A stretch of 59,024 bases of DNA from Trichodelitschia bisporula (GCA_010356995.1 ML996695.1:1001061-1060084); one strand, 5' to 3'; counted from the first letter of the stretch, positions 13,556-25,205 are shown. The notes: generated from the letters alone by a model not told the origin. Program-made: numbers and translations.

Positions 13556-15467
13556 TCATGTCGCAAAGAAAGCTTTCACCTGGTCCTCAAGCGGCACAAC
13601 AACCCCCTCATACACGGCCTGACAGAAGTCGTCATCCTCCAGATCCTTTTTCTTTGTGTCAAAGGTACAGAACACGCATCGCCGGACAACCATGTCGTAC
13701 TTCGCTCCCCATTCGTTGGACACGCGATCATCGTCGAGCAGACGCGTCGCCGTGATATAGTCGCTCAACATGTCCGCTGGCCCCTTGCTCACGCATTCGT
13801 TGGCTCTGCGGAGTTTCTCAAGCGGCTGACCGAGGCAGATCTCAAGCAAGAGGATGCCAAGAGCAAAGAGGGGAAAGTTGAGGATGTATGGGCAATGGTG
13901 ACGGTCGATACCGGCATCATGATCGCTCGCTGGTTTGGGGAGGATTCTGGCGATGTATACTTTCTGATAGTACTTTTTGGAGTCTTGAAGCACAAAGTGG
14001 ACATCCTCCTTTGTCCATCGGAAGCTCAGTAAAGGGGAGTTTTGCAATTGCAAGACGCTGGCCGCAATCGTACTGGCGAGTCTTATCCTGTCTGCTGCTG
14101 TCAAACTGGGAATATTCTCTCTTGAGCCGGCCAGAACTTGAGCCAAAGACAGCGATGACCAACCCGTAGTCCCAACTTGGGAGGAGCGGACTGTGTACAC
14201 GCTGTATCGACAGGAGTTTTGCGAGATGAAGCCCAAACAGGGGGCAGGTGTGGAACACCTAGCTGCCCATAATTGGTGACAGAAGTTTGTGATTCGGACT
14301 TCCTCCTCAGTCGTAACTGCTGCTGACCTCATAGTTGTAGTCATCGTTGCCGATTCCATTGTCGTAGTTGCTATTTGGAAAGATTCCTTGTCTTGCTGAA
14401 TGCATATGGTCTGGCGGGAACTGCTGCTGAACTGTCCAGAAAGGCTGTGCATCTTGGAGCTCATATCCGGCAGGAATCCCACACGCTTTTTCACTTTAAC
14501 GAATTTTTTTACCGGCTCCGGAGGTGCGGCCTTCTTTTCCTCAGGAACTGCTGCGGAGGGCGCGGGACTAGCGTTAGGTCTGTTGGAAGGGCAGATCTCC
14601 ACCTCTTGACAGAGCGTGGTCGGGTTCTCAGCGGCATGAGATCCTGGCAAAATAACAAGACGGAAGCGGATGTCTAGCGAAGCTTGTGGAGGCGACTGGA
14701 CCACCTTATTGTACTGCTCCGGATCGAGACGCCAATGCACGGAGTGCCCTGGCGCGCAGTTGCAGCTGAAAGATGCGCAAAGTGCGCTGTATACGGCATG
14801 TACACAGTCGCGAATGATTCGAAAATGACCAAACCGGCGCTGGGACAGTCGCGACCTCTCCAGACCCATGTTTTGATGTGTTAATCTTTCTATTACCCGA
14901 CCACTGCTCTCCATTTTCCCCAGCAAAATGTCCAGGTCCGATTTGGCGAGGCTGAACCAGCCCTTTTTCCAAGTCCGTTTAAGGCTCTTTTCGTCTTCCC
15001 ATCGGACCTGACTAACGGTTAGTTCTAGAACCCATTTTGGTGACTCCACACTCACGGTATGAGTGGTTCTGGGTACGTACCTTGCCATTCTCATCGAGGT
15101 CCAGCCGCAGTTTGAACGCGTTCGCAGCCTCGTTCATTTGCATTATCGTGGACATATAGACGTCATATGATACCGCCAGCCGCGCCTGCAGCTTCTGCGC
15201 AAGCTCAGGATCCTTCCATTTGGGACCACCGGGATTGCGAAGCAGCTCTTCAAGCTCAGAAGGGTGCACAAGGTCGCTCAGCAATTGCTCGCACGTATTT
15301 CTGAATATGACCTCTTGTGTGCTAAGGCAATTTATAAGATCAGCCAGTTCGCGCCTGTACTGCTGAAAGCGGCGGATAGTGCGAATCCCGTCTTGATAGT
15401 GTTCGAGTGCGCTGATGATCAGAGGGATGGCCGCTAAGGCAACGCCAACTACCTCAAAACCAGACAT
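13556..15467 (-). CDS. Fungal protein with HeLo-like hydrophobic N-terminal helix and C-terminal kinase-like/DUF7580-type domain
   Basis: Start MSGFEVVGVALAAIPLIISALEHY; one intron ~15009-15080; C-terminal RIRLASTIAASVLQL..W..DVHF, LFALGILLLEICLG, Y..VVRRCV.C.F, FCQAVYEGVV.PLE pattern. Confidence 0.82.
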
Positions 15468-15846
15468 TGCGGACGACACGGGCACATTCAACAAAGATCG
15501 GTTATATAACTCCTTGGCCCTCAGAAATACCCCGGATATTTGGAGCACAGAAGGTTGGGAAAGGTTTGTTGGAGGAATGGTGCATCGGTGATGGGGGAGG
15601 GGGGAGGGGCGATGAAGGAGTTGGCGAAGGGCTGAGGAGGCGCTTGCTCCATCCATCGGACAGGGCTGCACTAGCACGAAACAAGCCAAGTGCGGGGCTC
15701 GAATGGGGCTGAGGCCATGGGCAACGACGAGGCTCCATCGGGTCATGCGGGGCGTGAAACTGTTATCTTCATGGCCTTCACACCTATTCACTACATCTCA
15801 TATGGGAGACAGGACACTACTTTCTACAGCTCTGTGCTTCTAACTG

Positions 15847-18800
15847 ATGGCTGGAATCGGTGGTAAGTCGTGCTTGGGCCCTGTCGAGGGAAATAACAGC
15901 CGCTGAGAAGACCAAGTTGCTGCGGCTGCCGAAGCATCAGCGAGACTGTCCAACATCCCAACTCTCGTCTTGACTTGTCGAACAGCTTTTCTCGAGCTCA
16001 ACGCCGGTGCCGCAAAGTCCACCAAGTATGGCGACCTTTCTGCTAGGCTTGCCGACGAGAAGGGACGCTTCAGTCTCTGGACCACGAATATCGGCGCCCA
16101 CCGATCGGGCAAAAGCTCACTTGATTTCCGGCTTCGAGACTCTTCGCACTTGCAACTCCAGGTTGTGAAGTTGCTACGGAAATTGGCCGATAACCTAGCC
16201 GAAGGTACGTCTTGCTAGGCACCGACGTTGAAATTTGAACTGAATAGGAGGCCAGCGGATGAGATTCTCAGCGGCAAAAGAGTGCCATGGGATGAGCTTC
16301 CAAGCGACGATTCGGACTCAGAATCCGATTCAGACTCTGACGCAGCATTCCCCCCCCCATCTGAAGCTACTGAAATCGGCCAAATCATGAACAGTATCAC
16401 CAACACTTTGACCCTGCTCCTTCGACTCTCGGCATCAATTCGCAATCCGACTCAACACGATCGATGGCTCAACTCTAAATCAATCGATACGTCGGCATTC
16501 GAGCACTGGGACATCGAGCATGTGAGAGCCAAATTTCCGCAAACCGACGAGCTTCGTGCGGAACGCTTGGGCAGAGGCATTTCCCGAAGGCGCCAGTTCT
16601 TCAATTACAGGAAGCAGCATCGCGAACGGCTTGCACAGGGCTTCGAGCCGGCCGAACCGACTGCGACAGAAAGCCAGAAGCCTGCACCCACAATCGTGCA
16701 AAGCACAGTTGCATCTTCTATTCCAGAAATGGCCAAGATGCCCACATCTAATGCTCCCCTGGAAGACGACGAACAATCGGACATCGCATTCACTGCTACT
16801 TCGTTTGCCACATCAGTAGCTCAGGGAAGCAAACTAACTGTGCCTTTGCTACCGTGCGGAACTGAATATGACAAGCCATTTGAGTGTCCGTTTTGCTGCA
16901 GCATTGTCGAGATGGAGGACCGCCGCGCTTGGAAGTACGCTATTTCTAGACCATGTTAAGTGCCTACCTGTGACTAACCTTGATAGGAAGCACGTCTTCG
17001 CCGACTTGGCACCGTACATGTGTCTTTCTGGCGAGTGTGTTATGGAAAATCAGCATTTCCCCTCTCGTCATTCTTGGATGCAGCATGAATTCAATACACA
17101 TTGGACGACTCTGGTCTGCGTCTTCGGATGCCCCAATTCCTTTAGCTCGAAGCAGACCTTGAGGGATCATCTGATCCAACATCATCAAGAAAGCGTCGTA
17201 GGACGAGTTGAGGCCGTCCTTGCGACTTGCGAGAAGCCCAAGCCGCGCGACACTCCGAAGGCTTGTCTTCTCTGTGCATCCACTCTACCGAACTTTGAAT
17301 CCTACGGAAAGCACACCGCAAAGCATCTGCAGGAGCTGGCACTGTTTAGTTTGCCAACTCTCGATAACGAAGCTGACGACGGAAGCGAGAGCGCTGAAAC
17401 AGACGAAGAGGTGCACGGGGACCTTTCCGCAGCCGACGATGGAAGCCGGAAGAGTGGAGCTGATGACATACCACCATTCGAGCCCCGAGCCCCATCACCA
17501 TCTAAGCTTTCAAATGCTTCGTCTGAATCTCTTGGCATCCCACTGCAGCGCTCTGCGACGGATGTGGAGAAATACGCCGCCATTATAGATGATATTCTGG
17601 CTCAGTCAGATCCCAGTGCCACTTCTGACACCTCCCACCAGGCTGTGTACGAGAGCTTGCAGGCCAAGCTTGGATATGACATTTCTCACAACGCGGTACT
17701 GTCCTTTCCCTTCCCATCTCGTCCGTCCCTCAACTAATACCCCCAAGAAAGCAATATTGCGCCTAATCCTGCGCGTAAAAGTGGCCCGCACCATCAAGTT
17801 CTCCAAAATGCGTCCTTCGCAGCTCGACGCTGCACCCTTGAATCCTACAGACCCCCCCACAATCGTTCTAGTCGATGTGGACAATGAGCCCCCTTCAAAT
17901 ATATCAGGGGGGCCAGAAAAATGCCCCGTCCAAACCTGCGAGTACCACGTCAAGGGCTTTGCGCGCAAAAGGGACAGAGACATCCATGTGCCAATACAAC
18001 ACTACAAGGGACCGATGATGTGTCCCTTTTGTACAGATGCCGAAGGTGGGGCCTTGAGACGCTTTGATTACCTCTCTTCCTTGATGATCCACCTGGAATC
18101 TGAGCACCCCCGTGTCCAAATGGAGGAGTCCATTTGCCCCATGTGTGGTCTGTGGAACATCCACTACGATCAGCATCTGCACGGCTGCATGCTGCGTGCT
18201 GTGGAGCACGGCTACGCTTCAGGCTGGCCGAACAGTACCTACACCATGGAGGAACTTACCAAGCTTATGGTTCATGAGTTCTCTAAACCCTCTGGGGCGC
18301 CTGTGAGTTCGGACAAGCGGTCCGAAATCCAGTCGTCGGGGAAGGTGGAACTCTCCCAGCCATTGAATACAGACGCCCCCTTGGGGTCCCTTGGCGAACC
18401 GGCGGCGTCTGGTGACCCCTCAAAACAGCGACTCGTTGAGTGGCTCAATGAGGGCGACGACGAGGCCTCGAGACAGTGGGCTGTGCAGCACACGGAAGAG
18501 GCGCATGTCCAGCACCTAAACAACAAGACGGAGGCTATGGTGGACGTTGCAGTGGCACACGAGTACGCCAAGGAAGATGCTGAGCGCAAAGCGGCGACTG
18601 CAGCTAAATCAGCGGAAGAGAAGGCCAAGCACGAATTTGAGATGGAGGGGGCGCGGAAGAAGCTTGAGCAGCTAGACCGGCAGGCGGAGGTTGATCGTGT
18701 TGGAGATAAGGCGCGCTTCTATTCTGCTGACGAGAGGTATTGGCAGCTGACGGACGAGACGGGCTGGTGGGATGAGGGCGAGCGCTCTATACAGCTCGAG

Positions 18801-21800
18801 ATTCGCGAGCTTGACGAGGAGATCGATAAGAAGAAGTATGAGCTGCGTCGGCTTAAGGATCGCATTGATGCCGAGGAGGAGCGCGCTCAGCAGGAGAGCA
18901 AGGAGAAGGAGCGGGAGACGCGGCTTAAGGTCGAGCAGCTCAAGCAGGAGCAGGGTAGGCAGGCTACTGATTTATTGCGTGATAAGGAGCGCAAGCGCAC
19001 CTTGGCTGAAAACGCCGAGCAGGTGTACAGGATTAAGCTGGAGCTCGAGGCTAAGGAGGCTGCGACTGCAGCGAAAGCAGCAGAAGAAGAAGTGGCGAAG
19101 CGGCGGCTAGATGATATAATACAGCCGCCGATTAGGTTCACGGATGCTATAGGAAGGAAGTTTAACTTCCCGTGGCATCTGTGCAAGTCGTGGAAGGTAA
19201 GTTTTGCCTTTTGTATATCCGCTCCCGCTAACCCCCCTTAGGGAATGGAGACACTCATTAACCAAGCCTTCCTCGACTTCGATGTTATCGATAAACACGT
19301 TCACGAAGGCCACTACGACCTCCTCGGGCCCGATGGCGAAATCATTCTACCGGAGGTGTGGGAATCTGTGGTTAAGCCCGACTGGGCTATTATCATGCAC
19401 ATGTGGCTCGGACCGCCGAAGCTTAAAAGTGACGAGGAACTTAGCCGTCACGAGGAGCTTGAGCGCAATGAAGAGCTTGAGACTAAAGAGGAGCTTGAGA
19501 ACGACGAGGAGGCATTGAGACTGGAGGCCAGGGTAGCACGCGAGCACGAGGAGAGACGCGAGCAGGGGCACCTAGTGTTCGAGCATGACCGCGGCACCGT
19601 ATTGAAGCGACAAGCTGCACAGTCCGGACGGTCAGATTTCGCGTTTGACATGGATGACGTTGTTGACGAGAATCCCGAGCCATTTGACGAAGAACAGTTT
19701 GATTTTGACAACTGTATCTTTACTCAGGCACTGGACTCCGAGATCATCACAGCACCGACCCCACCACAGCACGCGGAGGAGACCCGCATCCAAAAACCAT
19801 ATAACGACGCGGCATCTCGGACTGCGATGGGCATCGTAGGCGAGCGCGAGCTTCAACCCCGAACGCCCCAGGAGACGCAACGCAACCAGGAAATATCAGA
19901 ACTGCAGATGCCGGGCGCGACGTGGGTGGCTGATGCGGAGGCCAGAGCGACTGAGGCAAGGGAGGCTGCGGTGGAGGCCATCGTGGAAGCCGAGCACCAG
20001 CTTCAGCGCCTAGCGTCTCTCGAGAAGGCACCGCGCGGCGAGGAGATATTGGGTCTCAAGGATGCACTAAGACAACAAGCGGTGCCACACGCGAAGGAGC
20101 CACACGGACACCACTTGGACGAGGCGGCGGCGCGCTCTAACGAGCAGGCCGTCGCTCAGGCCCGCCAAGCTGCGGCTGATGCTGCGGTGAGGGCGCAAGA
20201 GGAAGCTACGGCCCGTGCTCGCCGTCTCGATGATCTTAAGGCCCCGGCTGAAGAGCACCGCCGGCGCGCTGAGGCGGATGAGCGGCGCGTATGGCTGGAG
20301 CGTGAGGTTCGCGCCCTCGAGATTATACGCCAGGTGGAGGCGCAGCGAATGACGCTCCCACCGACTGCTACTACGCCGCTGCAGATTGCTGCCCCTCAGC
20401 GTAGCCCGGCACAGGGCCTGGGGGGGAATCCGTTGGCGAACGAGGAGGGTTCCGGGAGTTTGGGCGAGAGTGTGCTCCAGCGGGAGCGTGATGTTGCGAG
20501 TGCGCCGAGCGACAATCGTGACCAAGAGGAAGCGACATCCTGGATTCCGCAAGCGGCAACCGACGGAAAGTTCAAGCCGAGTTTAGGTGATAGTGTCCTG
20601 CTCCATCAAATGGCCCCAGATCATCCTGACGTGGCAGCACGAGCCGGCTCAAAAACAATCTACGTGGAGTCCGATGACGGCGACGACGTAAACGAAGAGG
20701 CAGAGTCATACTACTTCAACACGCTGCCTGGAGATATTCGCCGCCAACCGATCATCGGCAAGGCCGAGCGCGGACCTTCAGCAGAGCGGCTTCTTGAGCC
20801 GGCGGCTAAGCTGAGGACGCAGCACGAGAGCGCCGACGCCTGCGCCGACGCTCGCGCCACGGAAGATCATCACGACTACGACCGTGACAGGTCGCGCACG
20901 CCGCCTCCTAACCGCCGCGAGGAGATCCGCCGCCTCCAGCGCGAGCACGAAGAGGCCGTCGCCCACGCCAACGAGCAGTCTGTCGCGCAGACCGGAGCTT
21001 CCGCGCGTGCTCAAAAGGAAACCGCGAGCCGCGCCCACCCCCTCGATGATCTCGAGACCCAGGCCGCGAGGCAGCGCGCCGAGGATAGTCATACCGATGT
21101 CGGATACGATACCGACGACGATATTTTAGCCAAGGGAGCCTGCTATCACTGCATGATAACGAAACGCCGTTGCATCATTAACGACGGTGCCTCACAGTGC
21201 GTGCAATGCCAAGTCCTCAAGCGGGAATGTAATCTTGGACAAGGGGGGGCCGCGGCAAAAAAGCGCGAGATCCGCGCGCAGAAGAAGACGAGGAAGCGGC
21301 GAGGCGAAGCCAAGTACCGGACTGCGCGGGAGCTACGTCGGGAGGAGCGGGAGCAGGAGCGTGACAGTGTGGCTGAACGCGACGAGGGTCGTGATACCGA
21401 CTACGGTACTTTAGCCGAGATGATGACTGATCCCACTCTTTTGCAAACGCATGCTGAGCCTCAGCACGTTTTGGGCACCGCTGCGTATGCGCCCGTTGCT
21501 CTACCGCCTGTCGCCAACGGGTCTTTCGCCAACGGATACTCGCCAACCCTAGGGAGCGCACTGGAGGACGACGAATCAACAATAAAATGTTTTTGCGGCT
21601 ACAGCGACGATGACGGCAACACGGTGTTCTGCGAGCTTTGCCGCACCTGGCAGCATATCCTGTGCTACTACCCTGGCAGTCAGGTTCCCGAGGTTCATGA
21701 GTGTGTCCAATGTCACCCGCGCCCTTACGATGCCAGAAGCGCGGCAGAGCGGCAGCGCCAGTTCGTGCATACTGCGGCCAAGAAGGAGGAGATGCGTAGG

Positions 21801-22436
21801 CTTGACGAGCAGACGCGCCGCGACTACGAGCGTGCCCACGCCGCCCGCGAGGAGATCCGCCGCCTCCAGCGGGAGCACGAAGAGGCCGTCGCCCACGCCA
21901 AAACAATAAAATGTTTTTGCGGCTACAGCGACGATGACGGCAACACGGTATTCTGCGAGCTTTGCCGCACCTGGCAGCATATCCTGTGCCACTACCCTGG
22001 CAGTCAGGTTCCCGAGGTTCATGAGTGTGTCCAATGTCACCCGCGCCCTTACGATGCCAGAAGCGCGGCAGAGCGGCAGCGCCAGTTCGTGCATACTGCG
22101 GCCAAGAAGGAGGAGATGCGTAGGCTTGACGAGCAGACGCGCCGCGACTACGAGCGTGCCCACGCCGCCCGCGAGGAGATCCGCCGCCTCCAGCGGGAGC
22201 ACGAAGAGGCCGTCGCCCACGCCAAAACAATAAAATGTTTTTGCGGCTACAGCGACGATGACGGCAACACGGTATTCTGCGAGCTTTGCCGCACCTGGCA
22301 GCATATCCTGTGCCACTACCCTGGCAGTCAGGTTCCCGAGGTTCATGAGTGTGTCCAATGTCGCCCGCGCCCTTACGATGCCAGAAGCGCGGCAGAGCGG
22401 CAGCGCCAGTTCGCGCATTGCAGCCGCTTCGGGTGA
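15847..22436 (+). CDS. Giant (~2,110 aa) mosaic zinc-finger protein: conserved helical N-domain + C2H2 array, DEK-C-like, C2H2, coiled coil, ubiquitin-like, Zn2Cys6-like, 3x PHD
   Basis: Introns 15863-15910, 16205-16255, 16935-16986, 17696-17747 and 19197-19241 all splice in frame. Motifs RFSLWTTNIGAH..SLDFRLRD, FECPFC..WKKHVFADLAPYMC, HLQELALFSLP. The first micro-exon/start is less certain. Confidence 0.8.
21578..22413 (+). repeat. Tandem 324-bp repeat, ~2.6 copies, each encoding a PHD finger plus a coiled-coil segment
   Basis: Units start at 21578, 21902 and 22226. Copies 1 and 2 differ at 2 positions; the partial copy 3 differs from copy 2 at 1 position. Confidence 0.97.
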
Positions 22437-24002
22437 TCGTAAAGGGAAGCGGGCTCCCGCCAAAAGCCAGAAAAAACGAGCCAAAGAACCTGTTACCACA
22501 TATGGCTGGGCCCATCCGGAGCAGTCGAACAACGCAGACCGCGCGGCGAGCAGTCCACGAGATCAACAGAGAGCCTGCTATCATTGTCACATAACTGGAC
22601 GCCTTTGCACCATTAACGAAGCTGCCTCACAGTGCGTGCAGTGCCAAGTCGATAAGCGAGAATGTACTTTTGGACAAGAGGGGGAGCGAGAGCGAGAGCC
22701 GCAGCGGGAGCGTGTCAGTCGCCTCGGGACCCTTGCCGAGAGTTTTGAGCAGACACTCCAGCAGCGCAAGCGCCAGACGACTGCAGACAAGGTGAAGGAG
22801 GAGGAGCGCGAACTTGACGAGCAGCCGCGCCGCGTCTACCAAGCCGCCGCGCAGGCCGGACCTACCGTAGGTGCTCAAAAGGAAACCGCGGGCCGCGCTC
22901 GCCCCCTCGATGATCTCGCGACCCTGGCCGCTACGCAGCGCACCGAGATCCGCGAGCAGATACACCAGCCACCCGAGCGCAGTTGGGCCGACGACCGGAT
23001 GGAAGCTGCTGTCCGCGCCAGCCGCCTTCCCTTGGCTCATCGGGGAATGGTGAGCGACCATATCTTTCCGATATCCCCCGACTCCCCCCGGGCACCATCA
23101 TCCCCCCGAGCCGCGTTAAACCCGGCCGCAAGGCCAAGGCCGAGTCTCTGCACGAGCCCAAATAGATCGAGCGGCGCGCACACCTTGAGCGCGAGGCCCC
23201 TAGCCGCGAAATCACGCCCTGGGATGTGGTGCAGCGAATGCAGGACGAGGAGACACGCGAGGAGCAGGCACACCGTACAGAGGAGTTGCGTAGGGAGGAT
23301 GAGGTGCGCCGCAAGCAGCTTATCAACGAAGCAGCCGAGCAGTTGGGCCCCGAGCGGTTGGGCCCCGAGCAGTTGGGTCGCGAGCGTGAAGTGGCCGAAC
23401 AGCGCCCACGCCTCGAACGCGAAGTAACCGAGCAGCGCCTACGCCTCGAACGCGAACTGGCCGAGCAACGCCCACGCCTCGAACGCGAGACCCGCAACTG
23501 AACTGCCGAGGCAGCGGAGGAAATAGCAGTGGATAGCGAAGTGGACCGTGGTGTGGGGACGGAAGCGGACTACGACACGGTGGACTCTCTGCTTCCTTTT
23601 GTCCGTTTCTTTCAAACGTCAACCAGTCGCCTGAAATACCCCCACGTCGACTGGGGTGACAGCGTGCCGGTGAAAAGATCGGCGAAGGCTACAGACTGCC
23701 GCTTCCCCTGCCCACAGTGTAGCCGTTGGTTCCCCTGGAAGAGTGATCTGACGCAGCACATGAAGATACACCGCTTGCCGTGCGCATATTGTACCTGTTC
23801 GTTCATGTCGGCGAAGGATCTGAGGCACCACATAACGACGCACTTAGACGACCGCCGCTACCCGTGCCCACAGTGTGACAGTTCGTTCCAATGTCACAAG
23901 GACCTGACGCGCCACATGACGAAGTGCCGCCCGAGGCGTGATAAAGAAGCAGAGACGGACCGCAGCACGGCACTGGGATTGGAAAAGCTCTATCAGCAGT
24001 AG
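22412..24002 (+). pseudogene. Out-of-frame 3' continuation of the mosaic gene (second Zn2Cys6-like cluster, E/R-rich repeats, three C2H2 fingers)
   Basis: Shifted frame reads RIAAASGDRKGKR...ACYHCHITGRLC..CVQCQVDKREC. Possible intron 23050-23165; in-frame TGA at 23499-23501; then CPQC..H..H, CAYC..H..H and CPQC..H..C fingers ending at 24002. Confidence 0.6.
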
Positions 24003-25205
24003 CTGGTGGAGTATGGGTTCTCGATCGGTGAGAGTTAGGAGGAGACCGGGTTACGTGTTACCAGTTTGCCCACCGGTAGAACTGCTATCCCGTTCCGGGG
24101 GTGTGCATAGGCCACATGCTAAGACATTTAGCTCGGTTGAGGCCCTTAGATAGTTCTAGTAGTTGTAGATTCACTTAATCCAGAACAACCTTTCACACTG
24201 CTTTGAGAGTTCAAGAGGCTCGCAAGAAAGGAATTGGCCGTCGAGATCCCAACCCGAGAACCTGCCCAGCTGCCAGCGGAACCGCGGAACGATATGACAG
24301 ACAGTTGCGGAGGCCTCAACCCCTTTTCCGCGACTTCACCCCCCCCTCTCGCCACTGGGGAGCCCTGGAAACGCATCCGGTGGACGTCTTCCCACCTTCC
24401 TTGAGCTCGAGGCTATGAGAGAGAGAGGGATGATCCAAACTGGAAAGATGACGATGACGCATGTAGTCGTCAAACCCAACCCAGAATTGACAGACGATCC
24501 GCATCTTGATCCGATTCAATCGACCACTACCGTGGGGGGTCCAGAGCTTTATCCAAAGCATGTGGAGGAAATCAAGAGTGGATTGCATAGGCCAGGAGGG
24601 GCTCAGGAAGCGTTAGCTTCCTTACGTGAACTGTCTACCCGTGCTGGTGAATTTGTCAAAAGCGAGCATGACACTGCTGAACCTGTTATCATGGATCTTG
24701 ACCCAGATGGAGTGATATGAGTGGACGAGCCCGTTTATTAGTTCAAATGGCAAGGAGCTGGCCGAATGATAGTTTACTTTTGCGGACATTGTGATATCTT
24801 AAGCTCGAATAGCCGATAAGATTGTTAAGCACGTGCTGCGTGGAACGTCGGCAGGGTCTGTTGCTTGTGGGGAAGTCTCGTTGTGTTCATCCCCTAGGTT
24901 GATGCACCGCCTCCGAGGCGCGGCGAGCATGCCCTTCGCAAAGCCGGGAAGATCATATCGTGAGGCGCTGGACAAAAGTGCTGCCCAGTACGGCGTCAAC
25001 CCATGTGAGCATAGCTAATGCCAATAGCGGGAGCGAAGTTGGAGTCGTAGAATCCAACGCAGAGAGCGGACGGGGGCAGTTGTGCCGTCGGCTTACATGT
25101 GTTTAAACGCCTTCGTGCCGTTAATGAGGGCATGATAGACCATCTTTGGTATCACATTACGATGCTCTATCCATTAGACTAAGCATACACAGCATACCAC
25201 CCCCT

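Follow-up and report, generated by a model that had tools for sequence, protein, structure and literature searches.

The window considered here is a stretch of 59,024 nt from Trichodelitschia bisporula (GCA_010356995.1 ML996695.1:1001061-1060084), with positions counted from its first letter. Within it, two genes point away from each other. The minus-strand gene encodes a protein of 612 residues (P0001; public name 'hypothetical protein EJ06DRAFT_582368 [Trichodelitschia bisporula]') that belongs to the DUF7580 family (PF24476), and the plus-strand gene encodes a protein of 2111 residues (P0018) that starts with a core related to the zinc-finger family zf-C2H2_AcuF (PF26082). Both are families without known function, and their pairing is absent from the family descriptions that are visible. 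Gene models were made from a listing of open reading frames (ORFs), reading of the DNA and a script, and were then compared with public proteins; the translations built from the coordinates match P0001 and P0018 exactly. The pair is best explained as a single copy of a two-gene module that is conserved among filamentous ascomycetes. Its principal parts are as follows.

13556..15467, minus strand: coding sequence of the DUF7580 gene (612 residues, P0001; Pfam E 7.2e-21), with exon 1 at 15467-15081, a 73-nt intron at 15080-15008, exon 2 at 15007-13559 and the stop codon at 13556-13558
14771..15467, minus strand: N-terminal helical domain, residues 1-208, with the intron inside (AlphaFold2 model)
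13559..14809, minus strand: kinase-like (pseudokinase) domain, residues ~196-612, with a low-confidence insert at 273-362 (Foldseek and VIA-align)
15468..15846, no strand: region of 379 bp between the two start codons, the presumed shared bidirectional promoter; RNA contigs leave 15603-15682 uncovered
15847..22436, plus strand: coding sequence of the partner gene (2111 residues, P0018), with exons at 15847-15862, 15917-16204, 16256-16934, 16987-17695, 17748-19196 and 19242-22436, introns at 15863-15916, 16205-16255, 16935-16986, 17696-17747 and 19197-19241, and the stop codon TGA at 22434-22436
15847..17368, plus strand: AcuF-like core, residues 1-455 (66-sequence alignment and representative search)

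Evidence for transcription comes from contigs of two public runs, X1 and X2, labelled 'RNA?'. Because these contigs skip the minus-gene intron and plus-gene introns 1-4 at GT..AG borders, they derive from spliced RNA; intron 5 of the plus gene (19197-19241) is supported by loose contig ends. Contig cover extends up to 15602 from the minus gene and resumes at 15683 on the plus gene, leaving at most 80 bp uncovered between them, a distance that does not fix the true transcript ends. The preliminary description of this DNA placed two divergent genes here with starts ~380 bp apart; the start codons do lie 379 bp apart, and both genes are spliced and transcribed.

Pairing in other fungi and the predicted complex

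The arrangement recurs elsewhere. Metagenome contigs from the Joint Genome Institute (JGI) were scanned with a DUF7580 alignment, which yielded 28 loci, and the core sequences of P0018 and of four relatives served as tblastn queries for partner genes in them. Fifteen loci are informative, having about 1 kb or more of sequence upstream of the DUF7580 5' end; the remaining 13 are short of upstream sequence. An AcuF-core gene lies divergently upstream of the DUF7580 gene in 13 of the 15, with best E values per locus from 3e-15 to 1e-105. Over the ~211 kb of locus sequence as a whole, core matches are present in 14 loci and occupy the divergent position in 13 of them; at the other (L019), a locus without upstream sequence, the core gene is downstream of DUF7580 on the same strand. 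In the eight loci for which the N-termini of the two proteins can both be aligned, the genes are separated by 272-834 bp, as compared to 379 bp in the window. The two informative loci with no upstream core match at a tblastn threshold of 1e-3 are L025, where the DUF7580 match is itself partial and weak, and L021. An upstream divergent ORF in L021 (2-807, minus strand) resembles the first helices of the core by eye (…GRLVLWDVG…LDETLAKSPILKDTVVQLL…), and the pairing may be more general than counted.

The two families also diverge together. Over 14 pairs, the window included, their distances are correlated with a Mantel r of 0.81, a value reached by 0 of 9999 permutations, and this correlation shows co-inheritance as a unit. 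Since the pairwise distances are mostly 0.45-0.83, the pairs are old, distinct copies. Thus the divergent pairing, which the preliminary description had suggested looking for in other genomes, is kept across these metagenome loci.

The products of the two genes are also predicted to bind each other. Complex prediction with full-length P0001 and residues 1-385 of P0018 gives an ipSAE of 0.75 in each of three runs, versus 0.00 for the best of three controls; the alignments of this study were not used in the prediction. In calibration with microbial proteins, 51 of 78 solved complexes reach this mark, as do 2 of 108 mismatched pairs; with eukaryotic proteins, it is reached by 39 of 65 solved pairs for which older structures include no similar complex, and 2 of 126 unrelated pairs reach it too. 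No solved complex of this type is known to us, and a pass due to memorized structures seems unlikely. Contact agreement between runs is at least 79%, and the predicted local distance difference test (pLDDT) of the partner is at least 61. On P0001 the predicted interface comprises portions of the N-terminal bundle (residues 33-77, 139-148 and 169-172, in helices 2 and 4) and of the pseudokinase (432-434, 556-566 and 605-612, in the C-lobe and last helix), and on P0018 it comprises two conserved helical blocks (27-94 and 113-176). P0001 and P0018 are therefore predicted, from these models, to form a heterodimer in which the core docks on the N-terminal bundle, in keeping with the earlier suggestion that the conserved core couples to the neighbouring protein. 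That the locus represents a conserved, physically coupled two-gene module is considered highly probable.

The two proteins of the pair

Residues 413-608 of P0001 match Pfam DUF7580 with 75.6 bits (cut-off 27), and PF24476 is carried by all 17 matches of the protein search that identified P0001; its relatives align to the DUF7580 profile from profile position 5-7, which corresponds to about residue 192. The AlphaFold2 model, made from an 11-sequence alignment (pLDDT 68.9), has long helices over residues 3-208 and a mixed alpha/beta portion over 217-611, which is interrupted by the low-confidence insert. The protein ends with the final helix of the kinase-like domain. When the model is compared with the PDB by Foldseek, protein kinases occupy all 44 rows listed, with 252-287 columns aligned and 3 rows at E<=0.001; the best match is SYMRK (2.7e-4), followed by RIPK, BAK1, RIPK2, IRAK4, BRAF and BIK1. 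Exhaustive comparison by VIA-align finds BIK1 (Z 9.1, root-mean-square deviation [rmsd] 3.7, 159 aligned), the IRAK3 pseudokinase (Z 8.7), AtMLKL3 (Z 7.6) and RIP3 (Z 7.5), with alignments that span model residues 196-612. As modelled, DUF7580 is a complete kinase-like domain of the tyrosine kinase-like (TKL) type, more than a C-lobe. The HRD and DFG motifs are absent in all 11 aligned family members, and the DUF7580 protein is therefore called a pseudokinase; the corresponding positions read W-T-x-x-D-I-x-F and I-S-R/K, and the alpha-F helix motif N-x-T-L-F-A-L-G-I-L-L-I-E is retained. Of the C-lobe-like kinase domain without HRD and DFG in the preliminary description, the loss of the motifs stands, and the restriction to a C-lobe gives way to a predicted whole kinase fold.

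Several residues of this domain are highly conserved in the pseudokinase family (P0001 numbering; window 13559-14840). C211, C213 and C520 are nearly invariant, H217, C372, C573 and C576 are invariant, and an invariant lysine, K303, is found in the basic stretch KKFVKVKKR inside the low-confidence insert. The conserved cysteine and histidine residues could be a metal site, and KKFVKVKKR could be a basic patch that targets lipid or the nucleus.

The N-terminus of P0001 begins MSGFEVVGVALAAIPLIISALEHY, and in the model its helices span residues 3-35, 37-63, 87-122, 138-186 and 189-208. Residues 3-21 constitute the top 19-residue hydrophobic stretch of the protein (Kyte-Doolittle mean 2.15), and one E, one G and one P of the first helix are invariant across 53 sequences. 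In an ESM Atlas feature search with residues 1-210, clusters of HeLo (PF14479) rank first and second, with scores of 0.94 (183 of 256 features) and 0.91; among the 30 matches listed, 8 belong to the HeLo set. An Atlas cluster in which 55% of the members have DUF7580 bears the name 'HeLo domain-containing'. A fold test of the isolated domain used the relative P0246 (258 residues, 33% identical over 61% of the query, pLDDT 73.2) in place of the domain of the window. VIA-align compared this model with 48,161 chains, and among the best 50 rows listed, six are N-terminal domains of death or immune proteins, with alignments that start at their first residues: mouse MLKL (4btf; rank 9, Z 8.8, rmsd 2.7, 99 aligned), the MLA13 coiled coil (Z 8.4), AtMLKL3 (6ka4; Z 8.1, 135 aligned), the human MLKL N-terminal domain (6ux8; Z 7.5), NRG1.1 CC-R (Z 7.5) and HET-S (rank 50, Z 6.7). 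As part of the full-length P0001 model, the N-terminal portion gave only WeiTsing (Z 8.0) and other helical proteins. The domain is thus compatible with the four-helix bundle (4HB)/HeLo class and lies outside the Pfam HeLo and PigL_N families, and the architecture of the minus protein (bundle, two connecting helices and pseudokinase) resembles that of MLKL.

A profile search with the N-terminal domain yields 142 matching proteins with E<=0.01. The 120 that are listed all lack a precomputed Pfam domain; most have lengths of 108-190 residues and look like exon-1 fragments of the DUF7580 family. At eight of eight loci (L006, L009, L011, L015, L016, L023, L026 and L027), the reading frame that starts from the N-terminal motif breaks after 118-196 codons, near the position of the window intron 15008-15080, which follows residue 129. 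Comparison of these sequences suggests that the intron position within the N-terminal domain is conserved. L011 has an apparent extra intron within the first helix.

The AcuF-like core of P0018 consists, in order, of N-terminal helices (RFSLWTTNIGAH...SLDFRLRDSS), an acidic linker, a helical block at residues 131-230 and C2H2-type fingers up to ...LALFSLP. In the family (66 sequences), the consensus of the N-terminal helices is R-F-x-x-W-x-G-N-I-G-A-H ... S-L-D-Y-R-L-R-D-A-S, the second helical block reads L-R-L-S-x-x-I-R-N-P-A-P-H-D ... R-L-G-K-A-I-S-R-R-R-Q-Y-F-K-Y-R, and the fingers end with L-A-L-F-A-L-P. In a search with the portion encoded by exon 3 (225 residues), the number of representative clusters is 2244 at E<=1e-3, falling to 1286 at E<=1e-10 and to 145 at E<=1e-30. 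The assignment to zf-C2H2_AcuF comes from the relative P0024, which is 50% identical to the exon-3 region of the window: PF26082 is present on 23 of its 30 nearest Atlas clusters (best 0.98). A Pfam scan of the cores of 44 relatives of the plus protein gave 0 of 44 PF26082 matches with a Pfam copy that may lack the model. A word-indexed search with plus-gene exon 4, which covered proteins of at most 2000 residues, gave 0 of 1415 candidates at E<=0.001.

What follows the core differs from one partner gene to another. The partner at L006 has a coiled coil and ULD_2 (3.7e-37), that at L018 has a weak PHD match, Myb and three C2H2 fingers, that at L026 has a C2H2-like finger, and those at L009, L027 and L008 have no known domain in their tails. 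The L017 and L022 partners have WD40 arrays (L017 1-364 and L022 1-657, both on the minus strand); in L022, 126-bp units that are 97% alike are present in at least 3.2 copies up to the contig end, and no NOD domain occurs between the core and the WD40 repeats in the sequence covered at either locus. Arrays of near-identical repeats such as that of L022 are typical of HET-E/NWD-type receptors. Of the long relatives found in the representative search, 44 were scanned with Pfam, and 21 of these have a domain in the tail. ULD_2 is present in five of the 44, P0018 included; others have RRM, PHD, homeodomain, ARID with SH3, Rsc7, AMPK-CBM, BAG, DnaJ, DEP with SIN1-PH, Drf_GBD, RhoGEF, Zn_clus or CCCH domains. 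One of the 44, P0110 (1874 residues), contains NACHT (NPHP3_N) and ankyrin repeats with an AcuF-like core at both ends; as read from the sequence, either the core is an end domain of a NOD-like receptor (NLR) or two gene models are fused, and some of the other long relatives may be fused models as well. In one Atlas cluster, 34% of the members have PNP_UDP_1 and 28% have zf-C2H2_AcuF. For comparison, C2H2 fingers are reported in 34 NLRs of the Sordariales (PMC12258605).

The computational checks named in the preliminary description all went in its favour, and three of its elements agree with these data. It had a conserved helical and C2H2 N-terminal core followed by a rapidly reshuffled tail; the core (15847-17368) proves to be shared by the 2244 clusters, and the tail is repetitive. 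It had expected tails to vary, and architectures do change between loci, from ULD_2 to PHD with Myb and C2H2, to WD40 and, in one relative, to NACHT with ankyrin repeats. It had the pair free of nucleoside triphosphatase (NTPase) domains, and Pfam finds no NB-ARC or NACHT match in P0001 or P0018. The term 'chromatin' that it applied to the proteins targeted by the baited effectors is, judging from domain content, too narrow, as relatives also carry RhoGEF, DEP, SH3, BAG, DnaJ, RRM and WD40. Its proposal that the tail domains are true decoys is unlikely.

A possible death module and its alternatives

The pair is probably a new two-gene module that combines an executioner with a regulator or sensor. 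In the proposed mechanism, outward reading from the short shared promoter would mean that both proteins are probably made together and assemble as a heterodimer, in which the N-terminal helices of the partner core would clamp helices 2 and 4 of the bundle together with the last helix of the pseudokinase. The partner would keep the MLKL-like protein locked or poised, and could act as inhibitor or as activator. A signal would be received by the variable tail, through ligand binding, modification, degradation or loss, or oligomerization or clustering, and would free the bundle, so that the hydrophobic first helix could act on the membrane and cause regulated death or an ion leak. The outcome would serve non-self recognition or defence. 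A probability of about 0.5 is given to this reading of the pair in terms of cell death or of non-self recognition and defence. The further idea that the AcuF-like core is a new adaptor domain, which docks as a folded heterodimer on the MLKL-like executioner next door and couples many sensors (WD40 arrays, PHD/Myb/C2H2 readers, ULD_2 and, in some genes, an entire NACHT-ankyrin NLR) to a necroptosis-like death, is tentative.

Fungal regulated death is known mainly from amyloid-signalling NLR/HeLo pairs and from protease/gasdermin pairs; death pathways are often clusters of two or three genes, and activators are an open question (PMC12881547). The closest parallel in architecture is MLKL of vertebrates and the plant MLKLs (AtMLKL1-3 and wheat Pm13), which have the same order of bundle, connecting helices and TKL-type pseudokinase and which give structural matches in both halves, the kinase part with the window model and the N-terminal part with the relative P0246. 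Unlike MLKL, with which no sequence relation is detectable, the DUF7580 protein has other motifs in place of the catalytic loop and DFG and has a 90-residue low-confidence insert; its presumed regulator is the neighbouring zinc-finger protein, not a RIPK3-type kinase, and killing is here inferred. The pairs HET-S/NWD2, HELLP/PNT1 and HELLF/FNT1 likewise consist of adjacent genes, one of which encodes an N-terminus of the HeLo class with a hydrophobic first helix and the other a partner with a variable sensor (described in PMC12881547). In contrast to these, a pseudokinase replaces the prion-forming tail, the Pfam HeLo and PigL_N thresholds are not reached, 43 of the 44 partner relatives scanned have no NOD domain, and coupling is predicted to occur through a folded helix-helix interface instead of amyloid templating. 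There is no sign of amyloid or protease coupling in the pair, for which no search aimed at amyloid motifs was made.

Other two-gene systems share fewer features. Fungal gasdermin and protease clusters (het-Q1/het-Q2) are death modules of two genes in which the regulator is often fused to repeat or sensor domains without NOD, as described in PMC12881547. The pair considered here has a different executioner fold and no protease, and is not expected to be activated by cleavage. The plant NLR pairs RRS1/RPS4 and RGA5/RGA4 have the head-to-head layout, with fast-changing extra domains in one member and the presumed executor as the other, but neither window protein has an NB-ARC/NACHT NTPase, and a decoy role of the tail is hypothetical. 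Head-to-head NLR pairs are rare in the Sordariales (PMC12258605). HELL domains that sit in proteins containing a kinase or pseudokinase are mentioned in passing in PMC12881547. A literature search, which did not extend to supplements, found no description of the pair and neither of the terms 'DUF7580' and 'acuF-like'.

A number of results weigh against the cell-death reading. Death and membrane action are inferred, and binding is predicted. The fold evidence for the bundle comes from a relative that is 33% identical, not from the domain of the window itself. With that isolated P0246 domain Foldseek finds nothing at E<=0.001 (best E 0.13), the VIA-align values of Z 6.7-8.8 are below the bar of ~13 that the tool sets for helical bundles, and unrelated bundles (HIP1R THATCH, Z 9.9, and designed proteins) are equal in rank. 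In sequence searches, Pfam HeLo (PF14479) comes no closer than E 0.13 among six full-length members (12.5 bits versus a cut-off of 23.2, in P0011 only), and PigL_N (PF17111, formerly Helo_like_N) no closer than E 0.17 among 14 N-terminal relatives (11.7 bits, P0215, below threshold). Neither HET-s nor MLKL is found when the PDB is searched with the N-terminal profile or with the profile of the whole family; the best matches of these searches are coiled-coil chimeras and weak plant kinases. The HeLo-like N-terminus of the preliminary description survives in part: compatibility with HeLo or 4HB proteins is seen in the Atlas and VIA-align results, and formal membership falls short in Pfam and at the Z bar. 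Conserved columns are not enriched at the predicted interface (9 of 54, versus 52 of 385 in the rest of the core, by hand count), and passing scores in the complex test are also obtained for 7 of 44 blind neighbour pairs. The loci are metagenome contigs with unassigned taxa, and they include near-duplicates on the DUF7580 side (L026/L027 and L017/L022). Pairing was counted from that side, where AcuF-core genes lacking a DUF7580 neighbour do not enter the count, and co-divergence could follow from species history alone. Finally, tail domains of the type found in nuclear regulators (PHD, Myb, homeodomain, ARID and C2H2) are common.

This last point leads to the main rival, in which the two proteins form a non-lethal nuclear regulatory complex, with the zinc-finger protein working in the nucleus through a tail that reads chromatin or nucleic acids, the pseudokinase as its scaffold or allosteric regulator and the bundle as a protein-binding module only. 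Pseudokinases often serve as scaffolds, the bundle does provide a binding surface in the predicted interface, profile hidden Markov models do not place it within HeLo, and to the tail domains just named can be added Zn-cluster, RRM and the DEK_C-like match. Such a complex is nevertheless rather unlikely. Against it, the first helix is like a membrane helix in hydrophobicity and keeps its E, G and P throughout 53 sequences; the language-model and structure searches favour HeLo/MLKL; near-identical WD40 repeats, NACHT with ankyrin repeats and the association with PNP_UDP are hallmarks of fungal non-self receptors; and the family is very large, with rapid turnover of tails. Alternatively, the locus could be a toxin-antidote or allorecognition (het or spore-killer) locus, with DUF7580 as a constitutive killer and its neighbour as the specific antidote, so that linkage would be maintained by addiction or incompatibility and not by pathogen sensing. 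Close divergent linkage, co-divergence and the predicted direct binding to the bundle would all fit, and HeLo proteins are known in incompatibility (PMC12881547). This explanation is quite improbable: a changing tail of several kilobases would be superfluous in a simple antidote, and both genes are covered by RNA contigs of the two runs, with no imbalance that can be read from contigs. In a third alternative, a bidirectional promoter would be all that joins the two genes, which would have no common role; the complex score would then be a false pass and synteny a passive leftover. False passes do occur, in 2 of 126 unrelated eukaryotic pairs and in the blind neighbour pairs mentioned above, and taxonomy is unassigned for the loci, but adjacency and orientation are kept at 20-55% protein identity (distances of 0.45-0.81) in the 13 of 15 loci, paralogous subgroups too, and the complex score separates from its controls in all three runs; a shared promoter alone is very improbable.

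If the tentative idea of an adaptor core holds, it would represent a third coupling principle in fungal immunity, besides amyloid templating and gasdermin proteolysis, one that would be largely free of NTPases and would comprise thousands of genes across the Pezizomycotina. HELL-pseudokinase proteins gain a concrete conserved partner and a predicted interface, the partner family is very large, with 2244 representative clusters and with tails that resemble exchangeable modules for input, and two domains of unknown function become a directly testable model. If that model is correct, a regulator of a new type would connect the MLKL-type necroptosis machinery of animals, plants and fungi.

The tail of the plus gene and its 3' end

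The features found downstream of the core, within and beyond the coding sequence of P0018, are listed below.

17567..17774, plus strand: weak DEK_C-like match, residues 522-573, across intron 4 (Pfam E 0.0015; 18.9 bits, below the cut-off of 24.8)
19122..19409, plus strand: ULD_2 ubiquitin-like domain, residues 1023-1103, with intron 5 inside (PF22893 at 7.8e-34)
21133..21249, plus strand: Zn2Cys6-like pattern CX2CX6CX8CX2CX6C, copy 1 (read from the translation; repeat family D6)
21578..22418, plus strand: tandem array of a 324-bp unit, 2.6 copies, 99% alike (TRF)
21588-21713, 21912-22037 and 22236-22361, plus strand: three PHD fingers (Pfam PHD 1.4e-12, three stretches)
22437..24002, plus strand: transcribed stretch with frame-broken coding remnants (RNA contigs 22538-24300, colinear and unspliced)
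22438-23049, plus strand: ORF in frame 1 with a second Zn-cluster-like motif
23166-23498, plus strand: 33-nt repeats that encode a charged, helix-like repeat, followed by TGA at 23499-23501
23694-23922, plus strand: three C2H2 fingers, with a stop at 24000-24002

In addition, P0018 has a second zinc-finger-like stretch and a long charged helical region before ULD_2 and a weak WW_2 match after it. A second copy of the Zn2Cys6-like pattern, 82% alike, is present at 22568-22684, beyond the stop, and the 1.6 kb that follow the stop also hold an 86%-alike copy of another tail segment; Pfam Zn_clus gives no match on the plus protein at E<=0.1. Segments of 20915-21249 recur at 21845-21901, 22169-22225, 22568-22684 and 22848-22947 with 82-98% identity and in changed order. 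By its repeat content, the tail appears to have been built through internal duplication and shuffling.

The preliminary description took the plus gene to be intact to 24002. This does not hold: the frame and the annotated protein end at 22436, and the remainder is transcribed yet frame-broken. To reach 24002, translation would have to move from frame 0 into frame 1 near 22410, change frame again within 23050-23165 and read through the TGA at 23499. No splice sites that would bridge the frame change at 22410-22436 were found. An intron at 23050-23165 (GTGAGC..TAG) was considered as a rescue of the frame and rejected, as the contigs over 22538-24300 are colinear and have no joint there. Since these contigs are colinear with the genome, the frame change within 23050-23165 and the TGA at 23499 are real in RNA too. 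The tail in the window is a recently duplicated, partly decayed mosaic. The terminal C2H2 fingers were also compared with the tail fingers of the L018 partner, and their likeness is generic finger similarity only (29% identity).

A further RNA contig, of 5-8 times higher depth and with foreign flanks, matches one PHD unit and its linker (21419-21761 and 22411-22567) with an identity of 95% or more. Fourteen letters differ, base 22410 is missing from the contig, and two 30-mers from its loose ends have no occurrence in the window. A second expressed locus of this fungus therefore has a near-identical module that keeps the PHD finger and the linker in one frame. The contig represents a recent copy elsewhere in the genome and says nothing on the direction of copying or on a role as target. 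Similar high-depth foreign contigs are found at 18805-19171 and 19620-19767. In the window, the ORFs that flank the pair encode a Methyltransf_28 protein and a GDPD protein.

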